In this document: positions 2,089 through 60,878 of the stretch, piece after piece | Layout: each line of letters opens with the position of its first letter | How positions within the stretch are numbered: position 1 is the first letter of the stretch | Assembly: GCA_019634835.1 (NCBI GenBank) | Contig: JAHCAO010000006.1 | Coordinates: 46,298-110,297 of the forward strand | DNA length: 64,000 nt | Direction: 5' to 3' | Source of the DNA: Gammaproteobacteria bacterium | Lineage (GTDB): Bacteria; Pseudomonadota; Gammaproteobacteria; DSM-16500 | Made by a program: the position numbers and the translations under genes | Notes under the pieces: generated by a model | Databases searched by the model: none | Told to the model about the DNA's origin: nothing | Seen by the model: the letters and a program-made list of their open reading frames with translations, nothing else

Positions 2089-2218
2089 AGGAATTCCGCT
2101 GAAGGTAGTCGCCCCATTGTTTTTAGGCGACTTGGATTGCAGGATGCAATCCTAAACGCCATGGATGGCGTGTTGGGAGCTAAAAAACAATGGGGCGACT
2201 ACCTTCAGCAGAATTCCT
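2089..2218 (+). repeat. Family C palindromic element, copy C1
   Basis: 36-bp arms (AGGAATTCCGCTGAAGGTAGTCGCCCCATTGTTTTT / reverse complement, 1 mismatch). They enclose the core AGGCGACTT-GGATTGCAGGATGCAATCC-TAA-ACGCCATGGATGGCGT-GTTGGGAGCT. It lies between the MFS gene stop and the cysZ SD on the same strand, so it is intercistronic. Confidence 0.85.
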
Positions 2219-2251
2219 GTACGTCCTATCACTTTCCTATGTTTTATCATA

Positions 2252-3466
2252 TCAGCAAATGTGATATCGCCAAAACTTAGGCAGCAAGAAACAACAAAGT
2301 GCAACACCCATCACACATAATACTCCACCCGAAACAATAGACGCTGTAATTCCGAATGCTGCGGCCACCAAGCCTGCTTCAGTATCACCTAATCGTGGAC
2401 CGCTTAAATAACTAATCATTTCTATTCCTGCTAAACGACCACGAAACTCGTTAGGAATAGTTTCATTCCACATGGTCATGCGAAAAATTCCACTCATACC
2501 ATCAAAAGCACCTGCTAGTGACAAGAAAAATAATGCTACCCAGAAATTTGAGGCCAAGCCAAAAAAGACGATTGCAACACCCCACAAGATAGCTGAAACA
2601 GCAATGGCAAAGCCATAGCGTTTAATGTGTTTAGTCCAACCGCTAAAAAATGAAACCACTAAAGCACCTACTGCCGGCGCTGCATACAGCATGCCAAGCA
2701 CTTTAGCGCCGCCAAACCACATCGCAATAGCAGGAAACAAAGCAGTAGGCATGCCAAAAACCATAGCAATAAAATCAACCACATAAGTTCCCACTAATTC
2801 TTGGCGAGAAAATGCATAATGCAAACCTTGTTTTAAAGATGCCCATGTAGAATCATCACGTGTGCGCTTAGGTTTAGGGATATTTGTCATTAATAATAGA
2901 GCAACCAATGAAATGACAAAGCTGGCCACATCCACCAAATAGGTCACAACAATACCAAAACTAGCAATGAGTAAACCACCTATTGCCGGCCCGCCAATCA
3001 TCGCTACATTTGCTTTCAATGAAGCTAATGCACTCACTCCAGGATAATCTTCTTTAGCAACAATCTGCTGAACCATGCTTTCCAAGGCGGGTCTATGCAA
3101 CCCATTAAAAGCAGACATACATGAAGATACTAAAAACATAGCCCATATATGTGGAATAGGCAGACACGTATTCAAAGCTAATAATAAACTGCCAATGGCC
3201 AGTACCAATTCAGCAACCAATAATAACATACGCCGATGATAACGATCTGCAAATACACCTCCAATTAATGCAGTGAGTAACAAAGGCAATAATTGAACTA
3301 AGCTTAACAATCCTACCATGAGGGTAGAATGTGTTTCTGTATAAATTTGATACGGCAAAGCTACACCAGTAATCATCGTTCCCAAAAATGAAACAAACTG
3401 GCCTATATACAACAATGTGAAATTACGATTGCGGCGGAATAATGAAAAGTTAATTAAATAATTCAT
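2252..3466 (-). CDS. MFS transporter (EntS/MFS_3-like, about 12 TM)
   Basis: 404 aa, hydrophobic throughout. N-terminus FRNRNFxLLYIGQFVSxxG and loop motif GGVFADRYxRR are typical of MFS efflux proteins. Confidence 0.8.
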   Translation of the reverse strand: MNYLINFSLFRRNRNFTLLYIGQFVSFLGTMITGVALPYQIYTETHSTLMVGLLSLVQLLPLLLTALIGGVFADRYHRRMLLLVAELVLAIGSLLLALNTCLPIPHIWAMFLVSSCMSAFNGLHRPALESMVQQIVAKEDYPGVSALASLKANVAMIGGPAIGGLLIASFGIVVTYLVDVASFVISLVALLLMTNIPKPKRTRDDSTWASLKQGLHYAFSRQELVGTYVVDFIAMVFGMPTALFPAIAMWFGGAKVLGMLYAAPAVGALVVSFFSGWTKHIKRYGFAIAVSAILWGVAIVFFGLASNFWVALFFLSLAGAFDGMSGIFRMTMWNETIPNEFRGRLAGIEMISYLSGPRLGDTEAGLVAAAFGITASIVSGGVLCVMGVALCCFLLPKFWRYHIC

Positions 3467-3606
3467 AGGGCAAGGTAAAAAGCCTAACTAAGGCTGAGGC
3501 ACTATAAGGGGTTTAATAGACAAAGTAAAGTGATAGGTCCAGTGTTGAGAAAACATTGAGGTTGTATAATGAAGTGATCAGGCTATCTAACTAAGGAAAG
3601 TACACT

Positions 3607-4527
3607 ATGACTAGCGTGAATCTCCTGCAATACGAACCATGGCCAGCTTTACCTTATGACGAATTCCAATCTACACAATACCTACTGCACAGAGTGGTGC
3701 AAGCTATAGGTAAGCTCAAACTCGCAACACCATTCGAGCCCCATTGGGCAAATGTAACACTTTTTCTTACTAGTCAAGGCTTAACAACAGGGTTGATACC
3801 CTATCAAAAAGGAATTTTTAATGTTGATGCTAATTTTATTGATCATCACATCATTTTTACCTCTAGCTGGGGAGATAGTAAAAAAATCAAATTACATTCG
3901 ATGTCTGTTGCACAATTCATTAGTAAATTTCTTAACACGCTAAACGATATGGGCATAATCATGCCTATTAACCTCATGCCGCAAGAAATACCTAATCCCA
4001 TTGAATTTGATAAGGACCTTGATAGACGAGAATATCGTTCTGATCTTGTTAAGGCCTGGCAGCGCATTATGCTGAGTTCTTATCAAGTCATGCAGCGTTA
4101 TCATTCACGTTTTTATGGAATCACTCCTCCTATAGGGTTAATGTGGGGCACCTTAGATTTACGAGACGCACGTTACAAAGGTAAGCACATTCCAACAGAT
4201 GGGCCAAATTCAGGATACATTCGTCGTAATGCAATGGATGATGCACAAGTTGAAGTAGGCTGGTGGAGCGGCTCAGAACAGTATCCCCGCCCAGCTTATT
4301 TTTCTTTTATTTATCCTGAGCCTAATGGAATTGAACAAGCAACCATTCAACCTAGTAAAGCACATTGGGACAATTCACTCCGAGAATTTATTCTTGATTA
4401 TGATGATGTGCGCACTGCCAAGCATCCTGACCAAGATTTACTAAACTTTTTCGAGTCCACTTATGCAGTTGAAGCAGAAAAAGCAGGCTGGGAACCAGGG
4501 TTAGTGGTATCTGGAAATCCGGTGTAA
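3607..4527 (+). CDS. Conserved hypothetical protein, DUF5996-like
   Basis: 306 aa soluble ORF. The N-terminal pattern [40 protein letters not shown] resembles the DUF5996 signature as I recall it. Family assignment is from memory only. Confidence 0.6.
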
Positions 4528-4591
4528 CAAAGACTTACCTCTGGTTTTATGGAATAATAGACCAATCAGGGTATTCAAATGCAAGGAGAGC

Positions 4592-5377
4592 ATGATGTTA
4601 CTAAAAGATAAAGTTGCCATTGTGACTGGCGCAGCCAGTGGTATTGGAAAAGAAATTGCGCATACCTATGCACGTGAAGGTGCCAGCGTTGTCATCGCTG
4701 ATCTTGATCTAACACAAGCCAATGCAGTCGCAGAGGAAATTAAAGCCAACCAAGGACAAGCTTTGGGTGTAAAGATGGATGTTAGCCGCGAAGAAGAAGT
4801 GGAACACGGAGTAGAACAAGCGGTCAATGCATTTGGCAGCATCGATATTTTGGTAAGCAATGCAGGTATCCAACATATTGATCCCATCGAAAAATTATCT
4901 TTTGCTGATTGGAAAAAGCTGCTGGCCATTCAACTTGATGGTGCCTTTCTTACAACACGTAGCTGTATTCGCCACATGTATGAATCAAAACGCGGCGGCA
5001 GCATTATTTATATGGGCTCTGTCCATTCTAAAGAAGCATCCATGCTCAAGGCGCCTTATGTGACAGCAAAACATGGACTCATTGGATTATGTAAAGTGGT
5101 CGCAAAAGAAGGTGCAAAACATAATGTAAGAGCCAATGTTATCTGCCCTGGGTTTGTTCGAACACCGCTAGTCGAAAAACAAATTCCCGAACAAGCCAAA
5201 AATTTAGGGATCAGTGAAGAAGCTGTGATTAAAACAATCATGTTGAAAGATACTGTAGATGGTGAATTTACGACAACAGAAGATGTTGCTGCTGTAGCCC
5301 TTTTCTTTGCCTCATTTCAGTCAAATGCACTAACTGGACAATCTTTAGTGGTCAGTCATGGATGGTTTATGCAATAA
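4592..5377 (+). CDS. bdhA: 3-hydroxybutyrate dehydrogenase (SDR)
   Basis: TGAASGIGK cofactor motif, NAGIQH, YVTAKHG catalytic Y-x3-K, and [14 protein letters not shown]. This matches characterised bacterial BDH closely. Confidence 0.85.
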
Positions 5378-5387
5378 GCAAATCAGG

Positions 5388-6494
5388 ATGACAATGTCGA
5401 ATAAACCGCATGGTTATGACAAGGTAGTGTACCTTTTGCAAGGAGGTGGAGCATTGGGCACTTATCAGGTCGGTGCGTGTGAAGCATTGTTAGAATATGG
5501 TTGCACACCAGATTGGTTAGTTGGCACCTCTATTGGTGCCATTAACGCAGCTATTATTGCAGGGAATACACCAGAAAACCGTATCAAAAAATTGGAAGAA
5601 TTTTGGAGTATGATTGCCTCTCCCTGGCCCGCCGTCGAGCTTGTTGAAAAAAACTACATGGCAGAACAGTTACAAAAAAGTTGGAATGTATTATGGACTC
5701 TTTGGGTTGGGCAAACTGGATTTTTTAAACCTAGATTATTTAATCCCTGGATTGGCTTGTCTAGCTTCCCTGATCAACTGAGTTTTTATGATACGAGTGA
5801 ATTACGGTATACCTTAGAAAAACTGGTTGATTTCGATCTGATTAATAAAAAAGAAGTGCGCTTAACATTAGCGGCTGTTTGCGTTGAAGATGGTGAATTG
5901 GTTTATTTTGATAACATGACGCAAGAAATCGGTCCAGAGCATGTGATGGCAAGTGGTGCATTACCGCCAGGTTTTCCTGCTATCCGGATTGCAGGCAAAA
6001 ATTATTGGGACGGTGGGTTGAGTTCAAACACACCCCTTACTGCTATTATTAAGGAAAATATGCAGGAAAAATTGCTTTGCATTCTCATGCATCTTTTTTC
6101 TTATCACGAGCGAACACCAGCAAATTTATTGGAAATATTAAAATTAAGAAAAGATATTGAGTTTTCCAGCCGCTATCATCAAATCCTAACTTACATATGC
6201 AAAGTACAACACTTGCATAACCTCTTACACCATCTTGTTGATGAAGTGCCTGACATTCGCAAGATTGAAGGCGTGGATGAAATTATAAAATTCTCTCACC
6301 CTATCATTATGAATATCGTTCGATTTCATTACCGTGATTATCCTGGCAATTTATGGACGAAAGATTTTGACTTTTCACGTCAAACACTCATGGAGCATTA
6401 TCAATCCGGTTATCAAGATGTAAAGCAAGCCTTAAAAAATCCTGAATGGCTTTACCAGATACCTGAGCATGGAATTGAGTTGCATGAATTTTAA
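5388..6494 (+). CDS. patD: Patatin-like phospholipase
   Basis: GGGALGTYQVG oxyanion motif, GTSIGA serine lipase motif and DGG aspartate motif. Sits directly after bdhA, as in the Legionella bdhA-patD operon. The start is set at the ATG after the bdhA stop (ATG 5394 is also possible). Confidence 0.8.
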   Translation: MTMSNKPHGYDKVVYLLQGGGALGTYQVGACEALLEYGCTPDWLVGTSIGAINAAIIAGNTPENRIKKLEEFWSMIASPWPAVELVEKNYMAEQLQKSWNVLWTLWVGQTGFFKPRLFNPWIGLSSFPDQLSFYDTSELRYTLEKLVDFDLINKKEVRLTLAAVCVEDGELVYFDNMTQEIGPEHVMASGALPPGFPAIRIAGKNYWDGGLSSNTPLTAIIKENMQEKLLCILMHLFSYHERTPANLLEILKLRKDIEFSSRYHQILTYICKVQHLHNLLHHLVDEVPDIRKIEGVDEIIKFSHPIIMNIVRFHYRDYPGNLWTKDFDFSRQTLMEHYQSGYQDVKQALKNPEWLYQIPEHGIELHEF

Positions 6495-6500
6495 TGATGA

Positions 6501-6669
6501 GTGCATGACGAGTTTTTTGCAATGAAAGGAGAAGGGTATTTTGTATGAACCATTCACTCGCAGGCAGGAATCTGCGAGAGCAAAACCCAATCAAGGATGA
6601 ATGTGTTTTGCGGTGAATGGTGAAGAAAAAATACCCTTCTCCTTTCATTGCAAAAAACTCGTCATGCAC
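6501..6669 (+). repeat. Family A palindromic element, copy A1
   Basis: Perfect 42-bp inverted arms (6501-6542 / 6628-6669) around an 85-nt core. The core reads GTATGAACCATTCACTCGCAGGCAGGAATCTGCGAGAGCAAAACCCAATCAAGGATGAATGTGTTTTGCGGTGAATGG... It starts 6 nt after the patD stop and ends 21 nt before the adc start. Confidence 0.9.
6545..6616 (+). other. Candidate 23-codon micro-ORF inside the A1 core (MNHSLAGRNLREQNPIKDECVLR)
   Basis: ATG lies 8-9 nt after the purine-rich arm tract GGAGAAGGG and the ORF ends in TGA. The same ORF is intact in A2, A3 and A4. Coding status is unproven. Confidence 0.2.
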
Positions 6670-6690
6670 CTTTAATAACTGGAGATAACA

Positions 6691-7431
6691 ATGGATATTT
6701 CTGCAGTGAAACAACAAGCGTTTGCCATGCCCTTAACGAGCCCTTCCTACCCTAGAGGACCCTATCGTTTTATTAATCGTGAATTTTTTGTCATTACTTA
6801 TGAAACAGACTTAGATAAATTAAGAGAAGTAGTGCCTGCACCGCTTGAAGTCACTGAGCCTTTGGTTAAATTCGAATTTATCCGCATGCCGGATTCAACA
6901 GGATTTGGTGATTATGCGGAGTCAGGACAAGTCATTCCCGTGAGTTATCAGGGAAAAAAAGGTGGTTATGTTCATGCAATGTACTTAGATGATGAATCAC
7001 CTATTGCAGGCGGCAGGGAAATATGGGGATTTCCCAAAAAATTGGCCAAACCCAGTTTGTGTGTCACGAAAGAAACGTTAGTGGGACAATTGAATTATGA
7101 GACTCATCCTATCGCTATCGCCACAATGGGATACAAATACCATACATTGGCCACCGACACTGTGCATCAATCGCTGCTCACCCCTAATTACCTACTAAAA
7201 ATTATTCCGCATGTTGATGGTTCAGTACGAGTGTGTGAATTAGTCGAATATTATTTAGAAGATGTCACAGTCAAAGGCGCATGGAGCGGGCCTGCTGCGA
7301 TTCAATTAATGCAGCATGCATTGGCACCAGTAGCAGAATTACCCGTCAAAAAAGTTATTTCAGGCATACACATTCTCACTGATCTCACTTTACCCTACGG
7401 AAAAGTGATTTTTGATTATTTGAAAGAATAA
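6691..7431 (+). CDS. adc: Acetoacetate decarboxylase
   Basis: 246 aa, collinear with clostridial Adc: [39 protein letters not shown], catalytic-Lys region, [19 protein letters not shown]. Confidence 0.9.
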
Positions 7432-7439
7432 TACTGTAC

Positions 7440-8765
7440 ATGAAACACCACTGGTTTATTGTCATCTTATTGTCCTTTGTTGTAGGGATATTAGGCGCAT
7501 TGGCCGCTTTGATTTTTCAAGGCATGATTTCGTTGGCACATAATCTATTTTTTTCAGGACAATTAAGTTTTACTTATCATCAAACGGTCCACACCACACC
7601 TAGTATCTGGGGAATCGGTATTATTATCATTCCTGTTATCGGTTCTTTTATCGTGATATGGGCCACTAAAAACTATGCGCCTTCCGAAAAAGGATTAAGT
7701 GTACCGGAATTAATTTATGCTATTCGTTTTAAATCAGGCATTATCAACCCTGCGACTGCTGTTGTTAAAGTGCTAGCTTCTGCTATCACGATAGGAACAG
7801 GCGGATCAGTCGGCCGGGAAGGCCCCATTATTGCGATGGGGTCAGCATTAAGTTATCTCATGAGCCAGATGATTAGCTTATCACCGCATCATCGTGTTAC
7901 TTTATTGGCTGCCAGTTCTGCTGCAATTATCTCTACTACTTTTAATGCACCTTTAGCAGGCATTGCATTTGCTATCGAAGTGTTGCTGATTCAAATTAGC
8001 TTTCTTAATATTGTAGCCATTGTAGTTGCTTCCATGGTTGCTATTTACAGTAAATATTTATTCATTCATGTCACCCCCATTTTTCAGTTAGCTGCTATTC
8101 CACCTCATGATAATTATTATTTTATGCTGGATATCATTTTATCTTCTGTAATCTTAGGGATTCTTGCAGGCAGCTTATCTAGCTTATTTATTCGCGGACT
8201 CTATTGGTGTGAAGATGTATTCAAATCACTTTTTGAAAATTTATATTTGCGGCATGCGCTTGGAATGGGCGCAGTCGGTATCATGATGTATCAATTTATG
8301 ATTTATGGTGGCCATTATCATATTGAAGGGATTGGCTTTGCGACTATTCAAGATATATTAAATATGCTATTACAACATCCTCAATTCCTTATTTTGTTAT
8401 TCTTTGGTAAATTGCTAGCTACTTTTTTTACATTGGGATCAGGCGGTGTAGGTGGTATTCTCTCGCCCTCATTATTTTTGGGTGCAATCCTCGGCGCATT
8501 AGTTAACTTGATGATGAGTTGGTATTTTCCTTCTTTTTCAGCCTATTTTATTCCATTTGTGATGGCAGGGATGGCCAGCATGCTGGCCGGCAATACCAGT
8601 GCTATAGTGACATCTATTCTGTTAGTCATGGAGTTAACTCACGATAATAGTGCTATTCTTATTATCTCACTCACTGCTATTATTGCATGGCGAGTACGTC
8701 TGCTATTCTGCCGTGATAGCGCTTACACACTCAAATTGACGAGAAGAGGCATCTTGTTAAAATAA
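7440..8765 (+). CDS. ClC-family voltage-gated chloride channel / H+-Cl- antiporter
   Basis: 441 aa polytopic protein with ClC selectivity motifs GSGIP-like (GLSVPE), GGSVGREGP and GxFxP-like segments. Confidence 0.85.
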   Translation: MKHHWFIVILLSFVVGILGALAALIFQGMISLAHNLFFSGQLSFTYHQTVHTTPSIWGIGIIIIPVIGSFIVIWATKNYAPSEKGLSVPELIYAIRFKSGIINPATAVVKVLASAITIGTGGSVGREGPIIAMGSALSYLMSQMISLSPHHRVTLLAASSAAIISTTFNAPLAGIAFAIEVLLIQISFLNIVAIVVASMVAIYSKYLFIHVTPIFQLAAIPPHDNYYFMLDIILSSVILGILAGSLSSLFIRGLYWCEDVFKSLFENLYLRHALGMGAVGIMMYQFMIYGGHYHIEGIGFATIQDILNMLLQHPQFLILLFFGKLLATFFTLGSGGVGGILSPSLFLGAILGALVNLMMSWYFPSFSAYFIPFVMAGMASMLAGNTSAIVTSILLVMELTHDNSAILIISLTAIIAWRVRLLFCRDSAYTLKLTRRGILLK

Positions 8766-8775
8766 CCAGCGACAG

Positions 8776-8940
8776 GTGCATGATACGTTTTTTGCAGCAA
8801 GCAGAGGAAAGAATTTTGTATGAACCATTCACTTGCAGACAAGAGTCTGCGAGAACAAAACCCAATCAAGCATGAGTGTGTTTTGCGGTGAATGGTGAAG
8901 GAAAAATACTTTCTTCTTGCTGCAAAAACGCGTCATATAC
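8776..8940 (+). repeat. Family A palindromic element, copy A2 (arms imperfect)
   Basis: Same core as A1. The arms GTGCATGATACGTTTTTTGCAGCAAGCAGAGGAAAGAATTTT / AAAAATACTTTCTTCTTGCTGCAAAAACGCGTCATATAC carry several mismatches and indels. Confidence 0.8.
8820..8891 (+). other. Candidate micro-ORF inside the A2 core (MNHSLADKSLREQNPIKHECVLR)
   Basis: Intact ATG...TGA, 24 codons including the stop. GAGGAAAG tract upstream. Confidence 0.2.
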
Positions 8941-8978
8941 TCGCAGCAGTTAATATTTTTCATACAAGGAATTTAATT

Positions 8979-9308
8979 ATGTCATTTTTCAGAAACCATG
9001 CTCTCAGTGAATACACACTAATGAAGTTAACTTACATCAAGCAAAATACTGCTCCATTGGAATGGGAAGAGGAATTGGGATTTCGTAATCATGCCCTATT
9101 GTCACGTCCATTGAGTAAAGACACAGCAGAGAACATGCTTGCCAAAATTCATCAGACTGAACATCCTGATCATTTAAAAGCCTATAAAATCATCGCAACT
9201 AAAGATGACATGCAATTTAGAATACAAGTCAACTTAGATGGTATTAACCTTAAACTTTATGAACTAGAAAAAAGCCACGAGAACTCGTACAAAACATCAT
9301 TTTGCTAA
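8979..9308 (+). CDS. Hypothetical protein (orphan, 109 aa)
   Basis: ATG 8979 is preceded by AAGGA. The longer listed ORF (8892) starts inside the A2 arm. Contains an internal FRNHAL duplication. Its 3' end overlaps the uvrB 3' end by 12 nt (convergent). No family recognised. Confidence 0.35.
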
Positions 9309-11309: not shown

Positions 11310-11407
11310 AAAAATGATGCATTATAGCGTCGTAAACCTATAATTATTATAATTAAGGTGTGCCGCTTGTGAAAACTCGATTATCCGCCACTTGGAGCAA
11401 GATAACA

Positions 11408-25080: not shown

Positions 25081-25081
25081 C

Positions 25082-28000: not shown

Positions 28001-28537
28001 GAATTAGTGGATCACACACCTAAATTCATTGGTATTGCTACACACCGTATTCTTCAACGGATTTCGCATACAGGAACCAGCTGGTGGTCAGTTCGCACTA
28101 CTCAAGAAAAAATATATTATTTACAATCTCGGCTAAACCAGTTGGGAATCTCCGAGGATAAAATAACATCCTCTGCTCAGCTAGCATTAAAATCTGTGGA
28201 AAATATGTTGTCTGATGAACGCGGCAGATGGATATTAAAAAAGCATCGCGAAGCAAAATCTGAGTATGCGATTACTGCTCTTATCGACAATAAACTAGAA
28301 AGCTTAATCATTGATAGAACCTTTATCGATGAGGCAGGTACCTTATGGATTATTGACTACAAAACTGCGGCCTTGACTCATCTTGATTTAGCATCTTTTC
28401 TTGCTAAAGAGTATGAAAAATATTTAGAACAAATGCAAAAATATTATCTTGCATTAAAAATACATCACCATGGCTCTATACGATTAGGTTTATATTTTCC
28501 CGCTTTACCCGCATGGCGTGAATGGGAGCCAATCTGA
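25082..28537 (+). CDS. AddA-like UvrD/Rep-family helicase with C-terminal PD-(D/E)XK nuclease
   Basis: 1151 aa. Contains APAGSGKT, DEFQDTS, VGDPMQSIYRFR and TIHTAKGLEFD, with a C-terminal WIIDYKT nuclease motif. Confidence 0.85.
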   Translation: MDIAENLIEQDKQHRLLALDPTQSFIVQAPAGSGKTELLIQRFLTLLSCVKSPEEILAITFTKKAANEMRARVLKSLKQALNDPEPNSPHAKKTWLLAKNALQRDAQYQWNLINNPNQLRIQTIDSLCSFLNKQLPLLSHFGSTPDITDNPTILYREAVQEVLMHVEENFAWSQAITRILLHLDNDLNKLQDLLVNLLSKRDQWLPYIQFNSNDDDIRKILEHQLGLVITDTLTTVRHHVPHHLVSELLAITRFAADHKGQYPVDAELTACQHLTQLPGTAADDKLTWIGLGKLLLTKEYTWRKRVDVGIGFPALKNIKNPHEKTLHTEYRQRFTALLTAMHDHENFRLALIEIFHLPHSSYSQEQWEILQSLLQILKVAAAQLRLVFQQHGQIDFIENTQAALSALGTSEQPTDLALVLDYQIKHILIDEFQDTSHTQYQLLEKLTAGWETHDGRTLFVVGDPMQSIYRFREAEVGLFIRMRNQGIHHLTLTPLTLAVNFRSTPTIVEWNNLYFRTIFPPFNNIATGAVSYSPSVSNADPCSMVPYATHSEELGLKNLRNTNNTDKTSIDIVGFVDAVNDTEAAHIIDLIQEIKQKYPEEKIAILVRSRAHLIEIIPALKRANLAYHAIDIDPLASRQPIQDLLSLTCALLHPADRIAWLSILRAPWCGLSLADLLIIAGSDPKAAIYDQLEKQNIRQQLSEEGRQRIDKIFPLLRKKIAVRGRYHLRAWIESTWLLLGGPACLSEYTEIDDVNAFFKLLEEFSTNTQSLSLDKLREIVSQLYASTQHDDENLQIMTIHTAKGLEFDTVILPKLDRKKPNDDKSLLLWMERPLTNDQIALLLAPIHAIGNDKDIIYEYINKQMRTKSDYETDRLLYVAATRAKKRLYLFFNVQSKENDDHRIEPGSFLAKIWQQIEKNKNKILKSIPQEKEADSLNLPPPHRFIQRIHSTWINPIKETATEQVALHRKSAGFELVDHTPKFIGIATHRILQRISHTGTSWWSVRTTQEKIYYLQSRLNQLGISEDKITSSAQLALKSVENMLSDERGRWILKKHREAKSEYAITALIDNKLESLIIDRTFIDEAGTLWIIDYKTAALTHLDLASFLAKEYEKYLEQMQKYYLALKIHHHGSIRLGLYFPALPAWREWEPI

Positions 28538-28538
28538 T

Positions 28539-28712
28539 GGGATGAATGATGAGTTTTTTGCAGCGAGAGGAGGAGGATATTTTGTATGAACCATTCACTC
28601 GCAGACAGGAGTCTGCGAGAGCAAAACCCAATCAGGGATGAGTGTGTTTTGCGGTGAAGGGTGAAGGAAAAATATCCTCCTCCTCTCGCTGCAAAAAACT
28701 CATCATTCACCC
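28539..28712 (+). repeat. Family A palindromic element, copy A3
   Basis: Arms of about 44 bp (GGGATGAATGATGAGTTTTTTGCAGCGAGAGGAGGAGGATATTTT / complement, 1 mismatch near the tip) around the conserved core. It starts 2 nt after the addA-like stop. Confidence 0.9.
28586..28657 (+). other. Candidate micro-ORF inside the A3 core (MNHSLADRSLREQNPIRDECVLR)
   Basis: Intact ATG...TGA. GAGGAGGAGGA lies 8 nt upstream. Confidence 0.2.
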
Positions 28713-28737
28713 ATTCTAAACAGATCCTAGTACGTTT

Positions 28738-28878
28738 CCGCACTAAGTTTGACCTGCGACTGCAAAGCCTCGAGGTCCTGTCATAGGCCAACTCTTTTTG
28801 TGCTCGCAAGCTGCGCGGGAAAAAGTTGGCCTATGACACTCATCGAACCAACCTCAATATGACTCAAACTTAGTGCGG
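28738..28878. repeat. Nested imperfect palindrome (family E, single copy in the window)
   Basis: Outer stem CCGCACTAAGTTTGA (28738-28752) / TCAAACTTAGTGCGG (28864-28878). Inner stem TGTCATAGGCCAACT (28779-28793) / AGTTGGCCTATGACA (28824-28838). Confidence 0.6.
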
Positions 28879-30295: not shown

Positions 30296-30428
30296 ATCAG
30301 GCATTCGTTGAAGGTCATCATCCTATTGTTTTTAAGCTCCCAACGCGCCATCCATGGCGTTTAGGATTGCATCCTGCAATCCAGTCGCCTAAAAATAATA
30401 GAATGACGACCTTCAACGAATGCCTGAT
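30296..30428 (-). repeat. Family C palindromic element, copy C2 (core inverted relative to C1)
   Basis: Core AGCTCCCAACGCGCCATCCATGGCGTTTAGGATTGCATCCTGCAATCCAGTCGCCT is the reverse complement of the C1 core. Arms of about 38 bp carry 3 transition mismatches. It overlaps the last 5 codons and the stop of the pilW-like ORF. Confidence 0.85.
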
Positions 30429-31276
30429 ACTGAATACATATACTTATTTTTTTTAAGAGAATCAGCACGCACTTCCAAATCTATTCCTACCCCAACCACT
30501 TTCGACCAATCTGAAATTTTATCTGCTGATACTTCCTCTAATTTTTCTGCTTGCATAAATGAATAAGTAATCTTCATCTTATTTATATTTTCTACTAATT
30601 CTGATTTACGCTGTTTAATATCCTTTACAAATAATGCATATATGATTGTCCCATCTTGGTTACGCCGGTTTGTTGGAGCTACATAATAAGTATTCACAAC
30701 AAACCGACTTATTTCTGAATATTTTTCATATTTATGATGTAATGGAGACAAAGCAATTAACTCTTGGTGTGCTCCTTTAATTTTCACTTGTTGTACTGTA
30801 AATAATTCGGCACGTTGACAATTTGAAATGATTAATACATCACCAGAAGAAAAATGGACATGCTGGCTGGTCTCTAGCGTAATATTATCAGTCATTGATT
30901 GATTTAATACCGCATTAGGATAATCTGCATAGCGCACTGTGATTTCATTTGATGCATTACCTATCATTTTATTTTTTGGATTTATTGTATAAGAAAGGTA
31001 GGACATCACTGGAAAATCTTCTGTTAACTGTCCGCAACCGATTGTTCCAGCTTTTTGAATTTCAGATGTTAATATTGCTGTTGCAGCATAAGCATTATCT
31101 TGTATGTCAATCATAGCAGTTTGTAATTTGACGCTTCGTTGAGAAATAAGGTACATCTCAAGCAAAACAAATATCAATAATATTCCTATAGTCATTGATA
31201 CTAATACCTCTACCAGCGTCAAGCCATACGACGATACTTGTTTAAAATAATTGGGAACCGCTGCAGGTCTACGCAA
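30413..31276 (-). CDS. PilW-like type IV minor pilin
   Basis: Prepilin cleavage/methylation motif G|LTLVEVLVS followed by a hydrophobic helix. The start is proposed at TTG 31276, overlapping the pilV-like stop by 8 nt. The longest ORF runs to 31375 and would overlap pilV by about 100 nt. Start uncertain. Confidence 0.65.
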   Translation of the reverse strand: MRRPAAVPNYFKQVSSYGLTLVEVLVSMTIGILLIFVLLEMYLISQRSVKLQTAMIDIQDNAYAATAILTSEIQKAGTIGCGQLTEDFPVMSYLSYTINPKNKMIGNASNEITVRYADYPNAVLNQSMTDNITLETSQHVHFSSGDVLIISNCQRAELFTVQQVKIKGAHQELIALSPLHHKYEKYSEISRFVVNTYYVAPTNRRNQDGTIIYALFVKDIKQRKSELVENINKMKITYSFMQAEKLEEVSADKISDWSKVVGVGIDLEVRADSLKKNKYMYSVSGIR

Positions 31277-31643
31277 TAAATTGCCGCAAACATCCTTCCG
31301 TACCAATTTTATTTTTCTCGCAGTCTTGCTCCTGTGTGTTGCCCCAAAAAATAGACACTGTTTCATTAGGGTCACTCCCTTTTATTGTACCTCTGCCTTG
31401 AGGTAGTACTTCTTGGTTCTGTTTGTTCCATGCATTTAGCAATGCTTGGTACTGATTATTTTTTATTAGCTTGAGTTTTTCCGAAATAACATTTATTTGC
31501 TGTTGTGCAGCGGCAAAGTAATACACAGACCTAGATTGCTGTATCGATGTCACAAGCACCGCATCTACTCCTAACAACAAGATGGAAATAAGCATGAGGC
31601 TGGTTAATAACTCAATCAAACTAATGCCGGTTTGTCGCAGCAT
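31269..31643 (-). CDS. PilV/FimT-like type IV minor pilin
   Basis: 124 aa. N-terminus MLRQTG|ISLIELLTSLMLISILLLG is a class III (prepilin) signal with a methylation motif. Confidence 0.65.
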   Translation of the reverse strand: MLRQTGISLIELLTSLMLISILLLGVDAVLVTSIQQSRSVYYFAAAQQQINVISEKLKLIKNNQYQALLNAWNKQNQEVLPQGRGTIKGSDPNETVSIFWGNTQEQDCEKNKIGTEGCLRQFIA

Positions 31644-31672: not shown

Positions 31673-31754
31673 TATAGAGGTGCATAACATGTTTTTTGCA
31701 AGAAGAGGATAAGGGTATTTTTCCTTGCAAAAAACGTGCCATACCCCCATAGGG
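31673..31754 (+). repeat. Family A derivative lacking the core (A5)
   Basis: The left arm TATAGAGGTGCATAACATGTTTTTTGCAAGAAGAGGATAAGGGTATTTT is homologous to the A4 left arm. It is joined directly to CCTTGCAAAAAACGTGCCATACCCCCATAG, which matches the outer right arm. The core and inner right arm are absent. Confidence 0.6.
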
Positions 31755-33089: not shown

Positions 33090-33300
33090 ATTTCAATTTT
33101 GGGTATTCTATAGGCGCATGGCACGTTTTTTACAAGAGGAGGTGGGTATTTTGTATGAACCATTCATTCGCAGACAGGAGTCTGCGAGAGCAAAACCCAA
33201 TCAGGGATGAGTGTGTTTTGCGGTGAAGGGCGAAGGAAAAATACCCACCTCCTCTTGTAAAAAACGTGCCATGCGCCTATAGAATACCCAAAATTGAAAT
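33090..33300 (+). repeat. Family A palindromic element, copy A4 (longest arms)
   Basis: Perfect 63-bp inverted arms (33090-33152 / 33238-33300), verified base by base, around the conserved core. Lies in the divergent serC / marC-like spacer, 70 nt upstream of the marC-like start. Confidence 0.9.
33155..33226 (+). other. Candidate micro-ORF inside the A4 core (MNHSFADRSLREQNPIRDECVLR)
   Basis: Intact ATG...TGA. GAGGAGGTGGG lies 8 nt upstream. Confidence 0.2.
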
Positions 33301-53226: not shown

Positions 53227-53274
53227 ACTTATAATTCCTTAGGGTCTAATGCCACCAACATGTATATAATTATG

Positions 53275-53318
53275 CGGGGATTTTGCTGAAGACAGTCACC
53301 CTATTGTTTTTAGGCGAC
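53275..53318 (+). repeat. Family C element, truncated left half (C4)
   Basis: GGGGATTTTGCTGAAGACAGTCACCCTATTGTTTTTAGGCGAC matches the C3 left arm plus the first 7 nt of the core. Homology then stops. Confidence 0.6.
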
Positions 53319-53384
53319 AGCGAAATCCCTGATAATTGCGCGTCTATCATTGTGTATATCTCATGAGAAAACCATCAGAAGAAT

Positions 53385-54440: not shown

Positions 54441-54504
54441 TGGTAGCCTTTATTCCTACGCTTGCCTTCCTAATTAACGAGTCTTCATGGCTTCGACATC
54501 GCAG

Positions 54505-54537
54505 CGCTTCCGTTTTTTAGGATCCGATGGCTACCCC
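54505..54537 (+). repeat. Family B short repeat, copy B3 (partial)
   Basis: CGCTTCCGTTTTTTAGGATCCGATGGCTACCCC, 64 nt after the aminomutase stop. Confidence 0.5.
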
Positions 54538-54739
54538 ATAATTGCTCGGTAAATATTATAATATTAAATAAAATAATATCTTACAAGAATACATTAAACT
54601 TCATCTTCTAATAAGAAATACAACCATGTATTTCCTATTTGTTTTCTATATTGCAACCTATTTATATCAAGATATTCCAGATAAAACATGAAATTTCACG
54701 TTACAATAAAACTGTAGAACAAAAAAAGGAGTGCTTGAT

Positions 54740-55300
54740 ATGCGAAGTGTTGGATCAGGTATTTCGTTTTTAGCATGCTGTACTGTTTCACTCGCGTTAA
54801 GCTCTTGCTCTTCTATGTCTGATACATATTCCGACGATAGTTTAACAGCACCAGTGTATGCGGCTAACTACCCTACGGGCTATGGTTCGCGATTACCCAC
54901 CCAAATCGAAACCAAAGAAAAAGTCATTGTAGTAGACCCTAATGTGCATACATGGGGAGCATATGATAGTGGTGGAAACTTAGTCCGCTCAGGGTTAGCA
55001 ACCGCTGGTTCATCATGGTGCCCCGATATAGGACGTCCCTGCAAAACCAAAGCGGGACATTTTCGCATCCAGTCATTAGGCAGCGCAGATTGCAAATCAA
55101 GTATCTATCCACTCCCTAAAGGCGGAGCCCCGATGCCCTACTGCATGTTTTTTAATGGCAATCAAGGATTACATGGATCAGGAGAAGTAGTCGAGGGAAA
55201 CATTAGCCATGGCTGTGTACGTATGCACGTATCTGATGCCGAATGGTTACGATTCGATTTTGCAAAAACCGGAACTAAAGTTATTGTAAAACCGTACTGA
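54740..55300 (+). CDS. L,D-transpeptidase (YkuD domain) lipoprotein
   Basis: Lipobox LALSSC. The catalytic motif is HGSGEVVEGNISHGCVRM. AAGGAG SD lies 8 nt before ATG 54740. Confidence 0.85.
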   Translation: MRSVGSGISFLACCTVSLALSSCSSMSDTYSDDSLTAPVYAANYPTGYGSRLPTQIETKEKVIVVDPNVHTWGAYDSGGNLVRSGLATAGSSWCPDIGRPCKTKAGHFRIQSLGSADCKSSIYPLPKGGAPMPYCMFFNGNQGLHGSGEVVEGNISHGCVRMHVSDAEWLRFDFAKTGTKVIVKPY

Positions 55301-55355
55301 AAGAGCGTGATAGAATCAGCGTTTCAGTAAAATGCCAATTCTTTCATGGTGTTCG

Positions 55356-55390
55356 TAAAAACATTCTCCCCAGCTTTCGTTGGGGAGAAT
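55356..55390 (-). terminator. Rho-independent terminator of rpsA
   Basis: 10-bp stem ATTCTCCCCA / TGGGGAGAAT with an 8-nt loop. On the minus strand it is followed by GTTTTTAC. It lies 33 nt after the rpsA stop. Confidence 0.7.
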
Positions 55391-55423
55391 GATGAACATA
55401 AGTCAGTTAACCTTAAATCACTT

Positions 55424-57181
55424 CTACTTTTCTTCACTCTCTTTGTCATCTGTGCCATTGATGTGATCTTTAAATAAATCACCAAATGTGGTTTTAAGAC
55501 CTGACTCAGACGTTTTTTTCTTCTTACTGCCAGAAGAAGCAGCAGCACTAACAGTTTTAGTTGCCTTAGCAGCTTTCTTAACAGGTGGTGCTTTTCCATC
55601 CTTAGCTTTCATAGAAAGAGTAATCGCATGAATCTTTCTATCGGTACCCATAATTTTTGCTTCAATAGCCTCACCAACGTTTAGCTTGGTACGAACATCT
55701 TCTATTTTATCAGTAGAAATTTCTGACGCACGCAGCACGCCGCGAATACCCTCAGCAAGTTCAATGATGGCATGTTTTTGCTCCACTTCAACTACTTTAC
55801 CTGCGACCACGGTACCTTTTTCATTTTCAATGAGGTAACTTGCAAGAGGATCCTCAGCTAATTGTTTTAAACCCAATGCGATACGTTCACGTTCAACATC
55901 AATAGTTAAAATCACCGCCTCAAGTTCATCACCTTTTTGATACTTACGCAGCGTATCCTGGGCTTCTGTTTCGCTCCAAGCAATGTCAGAAAGATAAACC
56001 AACCCGTCAATGCCACCATCAAGTTCAAGAAAGATGCCAAAATCTGTAATAGACTTTATCTTACCTTTGACTTGCTCGCCTTTTTGGTGATTTTCAGCAA
56101 ATGCAGCCCATGGGTTAGCAGTACACTGCTTGATACCCAACGAAATACGACGACGCTCAGCATCAACATCTAGCACCATCACTTCAACTTCCTGGCCTAA
56201 ATGAATGACTTTATTAGGATTAACATTCTTATTTGTCCAGTCCATCTCAGAAACGTGAACCAACCCTTCAATCCCTTCTTCGATTTCAACAAAACAGCCA
56301 TAATCGGTAATATTAGTAACACGGCCACTGATCTTAGCATTAACAGGATAACGTTGGCTAATATCTTGCCATGGATCGCCACCTAACTGCTTAAGACCGA
56401 GTGATACCCGAACATTATCACGGTCAATTTTTAAAACTTTAACTTTAATTTCATCGCCAATATTAAGGATTTCGCTTGGATGTTTGATTCGCTTCCAAGA
56501 CATATCTGTAATGTGCAACAGACCATCTACACCACCTAAATCAATAAATGCACCATAGTCCGTAAGGTTTTTCACGATACCTTTAACTTGATCGCCTTCA
56601 TTAATATTTTCCAGAACAGCTGCGCGCTCTACATTGCTTTCAGCTTCTAATACAGCACGACGAGAAACAACAATATTATTACGTTTGGGGTCAACTTTGA
56701 TGACTTTAAATTCGAATTCTTTGCCTTCAAATGCTTCAGGATCGCGAATAGGCTTAACATCCACTAATGAACCTGGTAAGAAAGCTCTAACTTTATTAAT
56801 TTCAACCGTAAATCCACCCTTCACTCGGCCAACGACCACACCGCGAATAGTTTCTTTTGATTCGTATGCACGTTCCAAGTGAGACCAGGACTCGAGACGC
56901 TTTGCTCGTTCACGTGAAAGCCTTGTACTACCAAAGCCATCTTCTAATACTTCAAGCGCTACTTTAACTTCGTCGCCTACCTTAATTTCTAATTTTCCAC
57001 TTTCATCATAAAATTGATCGATTGATATATAGGATTCAGATTTTAATCCTGCATCAACAATTACATACTTATCTTCAATACGCTCAACGGTAGCAGAAAT
57101 AATCGCACCAGGCAGCATAGGGGTATCAGTTAGACTTTTCTCAAATAATTGCGCAAAAGACTCGCCCATATTTTTGTTCAC
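55424..57181 (-). CDS. rpsA: 30S ribosomal protein S1
   Basis: 585 aa with six S1 repeats (e.g. [26 protein letters not shown]) and a Lys/Ala-rich C-terminal tail. Confidence 0.97.
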
Positions 57182-57330
57182 TAGAACCTCAATTCACTAT
57201 AACGGTTAAGGATGGCTGACATTCTACTATGCTGGTGGTAAGCGATTCACTTCTATCGCACTGTTGTGCTAGAACATTAACGCTTCCTGTGTCACCTATA
57301 GAAATACAACTCAATCCTGTGTTAATCATC

Positions 57331-58071
57331 TTATTCTGCTATCCCCATCTCTACGAATTCAATCGTTATTGGGAATGAGGTAGCAGGAAAGGCCTTTTTT
57401 TGTTTAATCTCGAATAAAATCCGCTCAACTACCTGCTCAACACTCAAATGATCAGTATCAATACGAACCGCGTCTTCAGCGGGTTTAAGCGGTGCTACAG
57501 CGCGTTCTTGGTCACGTCTATCACGCTCACGCAGCTCTTTTATAAGATCGCTCAGGGTAACACTAATACCTCTTTCCTTCAACTGGTTATAACGCCTTAA
57601 AGCCCGTTCTTCCGGGCTAGCAATAAGAAATATCTTTAATTCCGCATCGGGGAAAACCACTGTTCCCATGTCCCGCCCATCAGCAACCAATCCAGGCACA
57701 TCTCTAAATGCTCGTTGCCTGCTTAACAATGAAGCACGGACAGCAGGCAACGCTGCAACGATAGAAGCGGCGTTACCAATTTTCTCCGTACGAATGACAT
57801 CAGTCACATCTTCCCCTTCAAGAATGATCTTAGAAATTTCACTCTCTTGCGCAATAAATTGCACATCTAGGTGTTCTCCGAGTACTTTTAAAGCTTTCTC
57901 ATTATCAAGCACAACCCCATGCTTTTGAGCAGCTAACGCTAATACTCGATACAATGCTCCACTATCTAAAAACTTCCAGCCAAGCCGGCTTGCAAGTACC
58001 TGGCTTACCGTTCCTTTTCCTGTACCACTTGCACCATCAATAGTAATGACAGGCTCCTTTTGAAAGATCAT
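57331..58071 (-). CDS. cmk: Cytidylate kinase
   Basis: [14 protein letters not shown]-loop, LDSGALYR, and [12 protein letters not shown]. The start overlaps the gyrA stop (ATGA). Confidence 0.93.
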
Positions 58072-60626
58072 TCCTTCTCTTCTCCTTTGATATTTGCAAT
58101 TCTTTCAAGACTAACTAGTACTTCACTCTCACCAAGCTGAATAAGGCGTACACCTTGAGTATTACGTCCAATCACTGATATTTCAGAGACAGGAACACGC
58201 ACAAGGGTTCCTTTGTTACTAATTAACATCACTTCATCTTCTTGGTTGACTTGCACAGCACTAACCACCTTGCCATTCCGGTCACTTGATTGTATCGAGA
58301 TAACACCTTGGCCACCGCGCCCACTTAAACGATATTCTTCCAGCGCCGTCCGTTTCCCATAACCATTTTCTGTAGCAGTTAAAATATCACCTTCACGAGA
58401 TACAATTAACGAAACTACTTTTTGGCCATCTTGTAATTTTACTCCACGTACGCCAGCAGCTTGCCTGCCCATACAACGCACTTTTGATTCAGGGAACCGA
58501 ACTACCTTACCTGCGTCAGTAAATAACATAAGATCATGATTACCATCTGTAATGTCAGCCTGGACCAAGTAATCACCCTCATTTAAAGCAACCGCTATAA
58601 TGCCAGATGAACGTGGGCGTGAGAAATTAACAAGCGATACTTTCTTAACCAGGCCCATGGAAGTAGCCATCACTACATATTGATTTTCATGGTACTCACG
58701 CACAGGTAAAAAGGCATTGACCTTTTCCCCTTCTGCTAAAGGCAATATATTAATAATAGGACGACCGCGTGACGCTCTGTTGGCCTGTGGTAATTGATAA
58801 ACCTTGAGCCAGTAAACCTTGCCATGATTAGTAAAACACAAAACGGTATCATGCGTTCTTGCAGCAATTAAATATTCAACAAAATCTTCTTCCTTCATCG
58901 TGGTGGCTGACTTTCCACGGCCGCCTCGGTGTTGTGCCTGATAAACATCCAGCAGTTGGGTTTTCACATAACCTTCGTGCGAAAGTGTAACCACCACTTC
59001 TTCATCAGGAATAAGATCCTCAATGAGAACATCCCCTTCTTCAGTCGCCGCGATTTCTGTTCGCCTTACATCACCAAATTCAGTTTTAATAACATTTAAT
59101 TCATCCCGAATGACTTGCATAAGACGGGTTGAATCTTGAAGGATTTCCATCAATTTTTTGATTAACCCCTGTAATTCCTTATGTTCTGCAACAATTTTAT
59201 CTTGTTCCAAATTAGTTAACCGATGCAACCGCATATCTAAGATAGCTTGTGCTTGTTCTGGAGATAGCCGGTACCCGTCATCGGACAACCCATAAATTTC
59301 TGTCGTCTGTGTTAATACGTCATGCTTGCCAGCTCGAGTCAAGATTTCTATCGTTTGCGCCGCCTGCCATGTCTGTTGTATCAACTGTGCCTTCGCTGTT
59401 GCAGGGTCTTTTGCTTGTTTGATCAATACAATCATCGCATCGATATTAGACAGTGCGACCGCTAATCCTTCCAATATATGCACACGATCACGAGCTTTTT
59501 TAAGATCAAATACAGTGCGGCGAGTCACCACTTCTCGCCTATGCCTAACAAAAGCTTCAATTAGCTGTTTGAGGTTAAGGATTTTAGGTTGACCATCCGC
59601 TAATGCAACCATGTTAATGCCAAACACACTTTGCATTTGCGTATGCACAAACAAATTATTAAGAACAATATCAACATTTTCGCCGCGGCGAAGTTCAATG
59701 ACAACACGCATCCCTTGCTTATCTGATTCGTCGCGCAATGCTGTAATGCCTTCAATTTTCTTTTCTTTTACTAACTCAGCAATCCGCTCTACTAAGCGTG
59801 CTTTATTTACCTGATAAGGTAACTCAGTAATGATAATTCGCTCTTTGGTAGCTTTTTCATCTGATTCAATTTGGGTTTTCGCACGCACGACTACCCTGCC
59901 GCGGCCAGTATGATAGGCTTCATAAATTCCATTTTTGCCCTGGATAATTCCACCAGTAGGAAAATCAGGCCCAGGAACATGCTCCATCATTTCATTAATG
60001 CTGATTTCCGGATTATCGATAAATGCTAAACAAGCTTGAATTATTTCTGTCAAATTATGTGGTGGAATATTGGTTGCCATACCCACCGCAATACCAGATG
60101 AACCATTGACTAATAAATGTGGTATTTTAGTAGGCAAAACAATGGGCATTAATTCGTTTTCGTCGTAATTTGGCGTAAAATCGACGGTCTCTTTCTCAAT
60201 ATCAGCCAACAGTGCATGCGCAAACTTAGACATGCGGATTTCGGTATAACGCATGGCTGCTGCAGCATCGCCATCAATTGAACCAAAATTTCCTTGGCCA
60301 TCTACTAATAAATAACGCATGGAAAAGGGCTGCGCCATACGCACAATGGTATCGTAAACTGCTGTGTCGCCATGAGGATGATATTTACCAATTACATCAC
60401 CCACAATACGGGCTGATTTTTTATAAGGCTTATTCCAATCATTCCCCAATTCATGCATGGCATATAACACACGCCTATGCACTGGTTTGAGACCATCACG
60501 AATATCGGGAAGTGCCCGACCTACGATGACGCTCATTGCGTAATCGAGATAAGATCTTTTTAATTCATTTTCTACACTAACTTTTTGGACTTCTTTAGCG
60601 ACTGGATTATCCATAGTAGGCTGCAT
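58068..60626 (-). CDS. gyrA: DNA gyrase subunit A
   Basis: 852 aa. [28 protein letters not shown], the active-site Tyr context AAAMRYTE, and C-terminal beta-pinwheel repeats. Confidence 0.98.
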
Positions 60627-60650
60627 TTTTCAGTGAATTTTAACTGCAAG

Positions 60651-60659
60651 ATTATACCA
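60651..60659 (-). promoter_or_regulatory. Possible extended -10 promoter element of gyrA
   Basis: The minus strand reads TGGTATAAT about 25 nt upstream of the gyrA ATG. No good -35 is present. The position where a -35 would sit abuts the family D palindrome. Confidence 0.35.
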
Positions 60660-60675
60660 TGAACATTAGGAATTC

Positions 60676-60878
60676 GACAGGAATAGATCAGGCTTAGGAG
60701 ACATTCGTAGTATCTGAACGAGTCTGCCCTTTTTTATTTTTATATTTGGTCGCAAAAGACGTTTCCATTCCGACTTTTGCTAAAGTGGACTCCTGTCCAC
60801 TTTCCCTCATATAAAAATAAAAAAGGGCAGACTCGTTCAGATACTACGAATGTCTCCTAAGCCTGATCTATTCCTGTC
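60676..60878. repeat. Family D palindromic element (single copy in the window)
   Basis: Perfect 69-bp inverted arms (60676-60744 / 60810-60878), verified base by base. The 65-nt core holds two hairpins: GCAAAAG-15 nt-CTTTTGC and AAGTGGAC-TCCT-GTCCACTT. Confidence 0.9.

Follow-up and report, generated by a model that had tools for sequence, protein, structure and literature searches.

What are the long, near-perfect palindromes that recur between the genes of a gammaproteobacterial genome, and how did they come to be so numerous? The question is raised by a 64,000-nucleotide stretch (the window) of the Gammaproteobacteria bacterium assembly GCA_019634835.1, a 2.46-Mb genome of 49 contigs with 39% G+C, in which the window spans positions 46298-110297 of contig C46. 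A preliminary description of the window had distinguished three palindrome families (A, C and D) of a common build (a long stem whose apex carries two adjacent small hairpins), had considered them unrelated in sequence, and had proposed a shared mechanism acting in trans from outside the window, with HUH/Y1 single-strand transposases as one hypothesis and fold-back synthesis of the arms as another. We consider it probable that A, C and D are subfamilies of miniature inverted-repeat transposable elements (MITEs), 130-175 bp long, whose whole body is an inverted repeat, whose apex carries the TwoAYGGAY RNA motif, and whose about 150 insertions were mobilised in trans. The motif itself is known, though so far without an explanation. 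In what follows, contig labels (contig C1, contig C2, contig C3 and so on) are distinct from the labels of window copies (copy C1, copy C2, copy C3).

One tip in three palindrome families

The TwoAYGGAY RNA motif (Rfam RF01731) was described in 2010 (Weinberg et al. 2010, PMC2864571) and has been an orphan motif since; a 2026 preprint reported a huge variation in its copy number and suggested a mobile-element-like spread without a mechanism (bioRxiv 10.64898/2026.09.22.753630). Searched against the genome of the window, RF01731 produced 14 matches (five with at least 43 bits, the gathering score), one A copy reaching 40.3 bits and the D copies obtaining no score. The repeats of the preliminary description were recovered at the same window positions by repeat finding, and the small hairpins quoted there proved correct. 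Its claim that A, C and D have no sequence similarity did not hold: C matches RF01731, A and D have a tip in common, and copies in congeneric genomes link all three. D had been read on the opposite strand (its TCCT loop is the complement of AGGA); on the strand that carries GGA, both families display NNNNNGAC-AGGA-GTCNNNNN, a 2-nt linker and GCAAAA(C/G)-GGA loop-(G/C)TTTTGC. The tip consensus of A reads TCGCAGAC-AGGA-GTCTGCGA, GA, GCAAAAC-CCAATCAAGGATGAGTGT-GTTTTGC, that of D AAGTGGAC-AGGA-GTCCACTT, TA, GCAAAAG-CCGGAAGGGAAACGTC-TTTTGC, and that of C GGATTGC-AGGA-TGCAATCC, TAA, ACGCC-ATGGAT-GGCGT.

Covariance models of the D tip (R1) and of the A tip (R2) were searched against 38 species genomes of the genus, which is gammaproteobacterial, and both matched the same loci in two congeners, namely G032 (Gammaproteobacteria bacterium RIFCSPHIGHO2_12_FULL_37_34; G032:C66:2962-3077, 78 bits with R1 and 66 bits with R2) and G044 (G044:C205:8707-8824, 70.5 bits with R1 and 81.7 bits with R2). 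At two loci, the G044 copies also scored 62.6-62.7 bits with RF01731 (gathering score 43). The congeneric copies retain the first hairpin, GCGGAC-AGGA(A/T)-GTCCGC, and the loop AATCAGGGATGAG, and have the second stem altered by compensation (GCCCTAG/CTAGGGC and ACAAAAAA/TTTTTTGT). Between versions of the tip, the stem of the second hairpin thus covaries through GCAAAAC/GTTTTGC, GCAAAAG/CTTTTGC, ACAAAAAA/TTTTTTGT, GCCCTAG/CTAGGGC and ACGCC/GGCGT. Since R1, R2 and RF01731 match together in congeners, A, C and D are to be seen as subfamilies of one family defined by its structure, and on the evidence of these sequence models the TwoAYGGAY membership is direct for C and runs through congeneric intermediates for A and D. 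Two sequential hairpins on one long basal stem are present in the consensus folds of A, C and D and in the Rfam alignments. The terminal loops are CAGGAU and AUGGAU in C, C-AGGA-G and AAGGAU in A, and C-AGGA-G with AAGGGAAA or AAUGGAAA in D; GGA is present in every one of them, the strict AYGGAY form being limited to the second loop of C and to some D copies.

When 185,579 genomes were scanned for the pattern of the D-type tip, the matches listed, among which chance matches are mixed in, included G032 and pairs of GGA hairpins in another gammaproteobacterial metagenome-assembled genome (MAG); none of the other multi-match loci listed reached the gathering score of RF01731. At locus L133, in the high-G+C MAG Gammaproteobacteria bacterium SE1507_maxbin2.bin.32, we observed GCGCGGAC-AGGAA-GTCCGCGC and, after it, a long hairpin whose loop is AGGGAT; this is the two-GGA-hairpin layout of A, C and D in a very different sequence.

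Element ends, target duplications and candidate transposases

The flanks of the palindromes carry short direct repeats. For each copy, the best direct 8-mer was sought within 16 nt on each side of the palindrome ends, with the left and right flanks of different copies as control, and 8-mers matching at 7 or more of the 8 positions were found in 37.5% of family A (control 2.9%), 69% of family C (control 0.8%) and 49% of family D (control 4%). The longest exact flanking repeats peak at a length of 8. When the ends of D were located from sequence alone, abutting 8-mers that agreed at 6 or more of 8 positions were present in 28 of 37 copies, as compared to 0.5% in controls, and the junctions follow the pattern of 8 bp, GTAAATGTTCGG...CCGAACATTTAC, and the same 8 bp (explicitly, TGATGACG followed by GTAAATGTTCGGTGATAGC...GCTATCACCGAACATTTAC and again TGATGACG; further D duplications are CTTTTACA, GAATTCTG and ACCTTTTT). 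D so delimited has a modal length of 175 bp and GTAA... ends, A measures 173 bp with ends GGGTGCATGACGAG..., and C 131-136 bp with ends CAGGAATTCCGCTGAAGG...; all three combine terminal inverted repeats with small size and no coding capacity. As direct duplications of a fixed length (about 8 bp) point to a staggered-cut, DDE-type insertion, we argue that A, C and D are MITEs, that is, non-autonomous elements which would have been inserted by a DDE-type transposase acting in trans.

In searches with the central 81-89 nt as query, BLAST recovered 66 A, 29 C and 58 D copies in the genome, with no locus common to two families. In agreement with the placement of repeats outside open reading frames (ORFs) in the preliminary description, 144 of the 153 copies fall outside the ORFs of a crude prediction. 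The genes on either side may be tandem, convergent or divergent, and the elements are dispersed (nearly always one element per intergenic region) and do not form the doublet clusters reported for Pseudomonas (nearest neighbour closer than 1 kb in 12% of cases, versus 24% for random placement). Across the 38 genomes of the genus the element copy number ranges from 0 to about 150, RF01731 matches occur in 15 genomes, and only in the genome of the window have A and D expanded greatly. In coding DNA, the identity to congeners is only about 73%, and the nearest metagenome relatives (found by scanning for the serC neighbour, 77% protein identity) are too far for empty-site analysis. Elsewhere among the long genomic repeats, most are tuf or other paralogues, together with two group II intron reverse transcriptases; the latter type (with YADD motifs) occupies the small contigs C38 and C39 and makes up the sole other obvious retro- or mobile elements among the repeats. 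A tip-deleted family A palindrome, of which the arms only are left, was observed between two housekeeping genes (contig C1:397540-397670).

The copies within the window are as follows (the strand is the one that carries GGA).

2089..2218, plus strand: copy C1, a TwoAYGGAY-type element with 36-bp arms (RF01731 45.5 bits, gathering score 43); tip GGATTGC-AGGA-TGCAATCC TAA ACGCC-ATGGAT-GGCGT; flanking direct repeat TACTTCCT (2079-2086) and TACGTCCT (2220-2227), 7/8 identical.
6501..6669, plus strand: copy A1, a family A element with 57-nt arms (R2 137.9 bits); tip TCGCAGGC-AGGA-ATCTGCGA GA GCAAAAC-18 nt with AAGGAT-GTTTTGC; flanking repeat TTTAATGA (6490-6497) and TTTAATAA (6671-6678), 7/8 identical.
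About 8775..8945, plus strand: copy A2, family A with decayed arms, of which a perfect stretch of only 17 pairs is left (R2 123.6 bits).
28540..28714, plus strand: copy A3, family A, outer arm pairs 41/41 perfect (R2 146 bits).
30296..30428, minus strand: copy C2, TwoAYGGAY-type (RF01731 42.5 bits, just below the gathering score); flanking repeat ATACTAAA and ATACTGAA, 7/8 identical.
31675..31726, no strand assigned: remnant family A arm without a tip (inverted-repeat finding and BLAST).
33090..33300, plus strand: copy A4, family A, with arms that are perfect over 63 nt; their outer 24 nt are absent from standard A copies.
43015..43062, no strand assigned: solo arm of family B, an IS66-type MITE; not a two-GGA-hairpin element, although part of the earlier count.
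45671..45817, plus strand: copy C3, TwoAYGGAY-type with 45-nt perfect arms.
47367..47411, no strand assigned: solo arm of family B (repeat finding and BLAST).
48867..49005, minus strand: copy A5, with a divergent A-like tip (81% identical over 57 nt; R2 67.1 bits) and arms that are unlike other A arms and have GAAGCGAGTAGATAG in common with family B.
53277..53318, plus strand: half copy of family C, a single arm (direct-repeat finding).
54505..54537, no strand assigned: solo arm of family B (repeat finding and BLAST).
60676..60878, minus strand: copy D1, family D with 70-nt arms that are 100% complementary (R1 132.5 bits).

The total of 17 repeat copies given in the preliminary description thereby comes down to 14-16 on recounting (9 with cores, 2 partial copies of A or C, and 3-5 solo B arms). 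At copy C2, the element supplies the 3' end of a gene, its right arm overlapping the final codons and the stop codon (30413-30415) of the upstream minus-strand ORF 30413..31375. The minus-strand ORFs 6388-6717 (109 aa) and 28465-28809 (114 aa), which run across A copies, are almost certainly spurious. A 24-codon ORF (ATG...TGA) over the A tip was considered as a gene and, showing by inspection no three-base periodicity in its conservation, is treated as non-coding.

Which enzyme would have moved the elements? The earlier statement that the window holds no transposase gene stood for the types searched (Y1, IS66, DDE_Tnp_1, IS256, ISL3 and TnpB-type domains, none of which matched), integrases, which it had also named, not having been searched for. 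Outside the window, attention is drawn to the IS66 family, whose inverted repeats begin with GTAAGCG and which generates 8-bp direct repeats (PMC11946415), and which includes the single-ORF ISBst12 group (PMC12898284). The genome contains an apparently intact IS66-family element with tnpA, tnpB and tnpC (contig C45, about 116945-119424) and a single-ORF element on contig C3 (468 aa, DDE_Tnp_IS66 and DUF6444; apparently intact, with an open frame), which has the terminal inverted repeat GTAAGCGTTCACGG and the duplication AAGATTCG. With the ends of the contig C3 element, family B agrees at 12 of 14 positions, D at 9 of 14, and A and C at 2-5 of 14 (chance level). Family B is a MITE of 216-218 bp with its own 115-nt centre, ends GTAACCATTCACGG, clean 8-bp duplications and 43 core matches genome-wide, and its parent is likely the single-ORF element. 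For D, we hold mobilisation by an IS66-family transposase to be an evenly balanced proposition, given on the one side the 175-bp length, the GTAA... ends and the 8-bp duplications, and on the other an agreement of ends at 9 of 14 positions, the lack of a parent element and a presence of IS66 that does not track that of the elements. A and C, having different ends, would use another partner transposase. The resident IS256-, ISL3-, IS4- and IS5-like genes were considered as such partners for A and C and set aside, as their ends do not match. Pairs of A ends 1.5-5 kb apart enclose housekeeping genes. The single-ORF element was itself observed within a B copy (contig C3:10700-12490, duplication AAGATTCG).

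Several observations weigh against the reading of A, C and D as trans-mobilised MITEs with an IS66 partner for one of them. A recognisable duplication is missing at several window copies (D1, C3 and A5); conservation at the element ends does not exceed that of the remaining arm sequence (72-82%), the reverse of what a typical MITE shows; and the ends of A and C are unlike those of any transposase-bearing element examined. No full-length parent with A, C or D ends was found in the genome. The likeness of D to IS66 ends extends over about 14 nt only, and across the genus the presence of IS66 does not follow that of the elements (G032 has elements without IS66; G001 and G047 have IS66 without elements). 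Furthermore, a search through an identical neighbouring protein led to a single other assembly, whose DNA is 100% identical and yields no strain comparison.

Two rival mechanisms would place the recognition site in the tip, which is 93-98% identical to its consensus as compared to 72-82% for the arms. An HUH/Y1 transposase (the IS200/IS605 TnpA or a REP-associated tyrosine transposase, RAYT) might read the two adjacent hairpins and mobilise A, C and D in trans, as Y1 enzymes read conserved small hairpins in variable surroundings; the tip being the most conserved part of the element, the random orientation and the intergenic positions would all suit it. Against it stand the duplications of about 8 bp in all three families (IS200/IS605-type single-strand transposition is not known to make such direct duplications), the location of the hairpins at the element centre and not near the ends, and the gene content: the 99.78%-complete genome gave 0 matches to PF01797 (Y1_Tnp, which covers IS200/IS605 TnpA and RAYTs), with controls positive in 6 of 14 genomes, and 0 matches to PF07282 (TnpB-type). 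The genome-wide absence of HUH genes, which the preliminary description had named as the outcome that would overturn this part of its hypothesis, was thus found for Y1_Tnp and TnpB-type genes, the search for Y2 (IS91) being uninformative as no control was positive. We regard the HUH/Y1 reading as close to refuted; from the original proposal of a shared tip served in trans from outside the window, the tip survives as real and homologous, and so does the location of candidate enzymes outside the window. Alternatively, the tip itself could be the cis site for mobilisation, a shared trans factor reading the folded two-hairpin DNA while the ends matter little. Such a factor would explain one tip in unrelated shells, the tip (and not the ends) being best conserved in all three families, and the equal duplication length in A, C and D; moreover, B elements exactly replace the tip in A, C and D arms, suggesting the tip region as a preferred site of action. 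However, no DDE transposase is known to work so, family B has 8-bp duplications without a TwoAYGGAY tip, and the element lengths differ (131-136, 173 and 175 bp), which means that cleavage does not occur at a fixed distance from the tip. We judge this alternative very unlikely, if a shade less so than the HUH/Y1 one.

Probable mirror-copying of the arms, and composite elements

The arms are complementary at 95.5% (A), 97.3% (C) and 99% (D) of positions, and compensated double changes are abundant (238, 114 and 365 cells in the three families). In D copies with recognisable duplications, 12.5% of positions differ between the two duplications, whereas 3.0% of the outer 50 arm pairs are mismatched (Fisher p = 2e-8), from which it follows that the arms were held paired after insertion. 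The nature of the changes bears on how this was achieved: on the GGA strand, G:T and A:C mismatches of the arms show no asymmetry (33/35, 7/8 and 13/9; in total 53 vs 52), and about 30% of the compensated pair changes are of the transversion type, with the transition/transversion ratio of the unpaired tip background. Indels are mirrored as well (GGTCTGAG replacing GGTATCTGAG on both arms, T-run lengths varying likewise). Moreover, unique flanking DNA can be found mirrored: the outer 35 nt of the copy D1 arms are unique genomic sequence, as are the outer 52 nt of the B copy at contig C2:13210-13521, each being present only as its own perfect pair. The outer 24 nt of copy A4 were likewise examined as a mirrored unique flank; they match at their own locus only (E<=0.05), and a loose likeness to the extensions of three other long A copies weakened that interpretation, as these may form a long-armed subfamily.

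Composite elements extend the pattern. At contig C48:83566-83828, a B element has a left flank that is the exact complement of the family A right inner arm, and not A's different left inner arm. A D tip inside A ends, 217 bp long and with its own duplication (CTATAAAC/CTACAAAC), lies at contig C1:381087-381304, and an A tip inside C-like ends (216 bp) near contig C5:49858. Perfectly symmetric replacements of the two-hairpin tip by B elements were observed in A-, C- and D-type arms (contig C9:20839-21137, contig C48:83566-83828, contig C5 near 24815, contig C1 near 143366), and such composites suggest an insertion directed to the apex, followed by mirror-copying.

On balance, we favour the view that the arms are kept complementary after insertion by DNA-level mirror-copying (intrastrand template switching or quasi-palindrome correction). 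The fold-back or template-switch idea of the preliminary description is in this way supported by arms that outlast duplications, swaps of the transversion type, the lack of wobble asymmetry, mirrored indels, a mirrored unique flank and a composite. Mirror-copying would let palindromes grow outward and create symmetric composites; it would explain the other symmetric composites and suggests how one tip reached shells with unrelated ends, which it would probably have entered by nested insertion, then symmetrisation. At its furthest, this line of thought makes the TwoAYGGAY tip a portable module between transposon shells: the tip, or B, would land in the apex of a MITE, mirror-copying would symmetrise the product, and a new family would arise for a different transposase. 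We put this forward as a speculation that is probably wrong. Under it, the tip would be conserved as a sequence acting in cis for the spread or tolerance of the element, be it that a shared factor reads it as folded DNA or that, as RNA, it binds CsrA and so makes insertions less costly. Were it true, bacterial foldback transposons would quite generally be built and diversified by palindrome symmetrisation.

Possible functions of the tip and comparison with known systems

Conservation of the tip exceeds that of the arms about sixfold. Selection may have acted here, at the level of the element lineage or from the side of the host, or else mutation may be elevated in the stems. All six hairpin loops of A, C and D carry GGA, and the genome harbours two csrA genes (PF02599, 93.9 and 55 bits), so that both GGA in hairpin loops and a csrA gene are found here, as expected for a CsrA-binding RNA. 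The second loop of A, CAAGGAUG, fits the CsrA core derived by systematic evolution of ligands by exponential enrichment (SELEX). Judging from these loops, transcripts of the GGA strand might bind a CsrA dimer with their two loops, a suggestion that we make tentatively. AYGGAY loops have been proposed as Csr/Rsm sites (bioRxiv 10.64898/2026.09.22.753630). Three observations weigh against this RNA part of our interpretation: the wobble bias of the tip stems (70 vs 40) comes from non-independent cells and is weak, one family driving it; no promoter is evident by eye; and the GGA strand is that of the flanking genes in just 43 of 78 tandem contexts, which is random. A sub-threshold CsrA-like match at 56405-56479, inside the 585-aa minus-strand ORF 55424..57181 (23.2 bits, cut-off 27), is probably due to chance.

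The stronger form of the RNA interpretation holds that the elements are host RNA genes or modules, TwoAYGGAY small RNAs serving as CsrA decoys or regulators, whose stems are kept by selection on RNA structure and whose mobility is incidental. GGA in all six loops and the two csrA genes agree with it, as do the conservation of the tip over the arms, the covariation of the tip stems between versions, the G:T mismatches, which slightly outnumber the A:C ones when these stems are read on the GGA strand, and the Csr/Rsm binding proposed in the literature (bioRxiv 10.64898/2026.09.22.753630). It is opposed by the random orientation to neighbouring genes (43 vs 35), by the equality of G:T and A:C mismatches in the arms, by the transversion-type share of compensated changes (for which no wobble intermediate is possible), by mirrored indels and unique flanks, which RNA selection cannot create, and by a copy number that varies from 0 to about 150 among congeners. 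We deem it improbable.

On the MITE interpretation, about 150 loci (roughly 1% of the genome) are explained, and several spurious ORFs over repeats can be dropped from the annotation. The genome offers a testable mechanism for the spread of TwoAYGGAY (inverted ends, 8-bp duplications, and an IS66 candidate for one subfamily), in which one conserved tip occupies at least three shells with unrelated ends and long arms, probably mirror-copied, could also capture flanking DNA. If this is true, TwoAYGGAY should be annotated as a transposon-borne module and not as a conventional small-RNA gene, and CsrA binding becomes a question of mobile DNA meeting a global regulator.

How do these elements compare with known systems? 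Like TwoAYGGAY, they consist of a long basal stem topped by two neighbouring hairpins whose loops are of the (A)YGGA(Y) type, belong to Gammaproteobacteria and reach a high, very variable copy number. They differ in that A and D stay below the Rfam threshold (the first loop being an AGGA tetraloop and the second AAGGAU or AAGGGAAA, not AYGGAY), and in lacking the doublet clustering and the flanking arrays of 5-6-mers described for Pseudomonas; 8-bp target duplications and defined inverted ends are not reported in PMC2864571 or bioRxiv 10.64898/2026.09.22.753630. With the IS66 family, D and B have in common inverted ends initiated by GTAA and 8-bp direct repeats, and members of the family reside in the same genome; the likeness, which is one of sequence, covers only 9 of 14 positions in D, and the ends of A and C are unrelated. 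Repetitive extragenic palindromic sequences (REPs) and REPINs with their RAYT are, as A, C and D, short palindromic intergenic repeats of Gammaproteobacteria (REPs occurring in hundreds of copies), but this genome has no RAYT gene, and A, C and D far exceed them in length and are flanked by target duplications. RNAs of the CsrB/RsmZ type present GGA in hairpin loops, as do A, C and D, in which these lie 21-28 nt apart, a spacing that suits a CsrA dimer; A, C and D differ from them in having only two sites per unit, and in that the about 150 units are dispersed, randomly oriented and without an evident promoter.

Bacterial MITEs (Correia/NEMIS, ERIC, RUP) are small, non-coding, multi-copy elements, intergenic or co-transcribed, with terminal inverted repeats and target duplications, and owe their movement to enzymes acting in trans. 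A, C and D are likewise small, non-coding and multi-copy, with terminal inverted repeats and target-site duplications; they stand apart in that the centre and not the ends is conserved, in that the arms are near-perfectly complementary over their full length, and in that one tip is found in shells with unrelated ends. In the Ripley model of quasi-palindrome template switching, one arm templates the other, mismatches and indels are mirrored, and imperfect palindromes are made perfect. The arms of A, C and D show mirrored mismatches and indels of this very kind, with the difference that here the process would act repeatedly on a whole mobile family and extend into unique flanking DNA.

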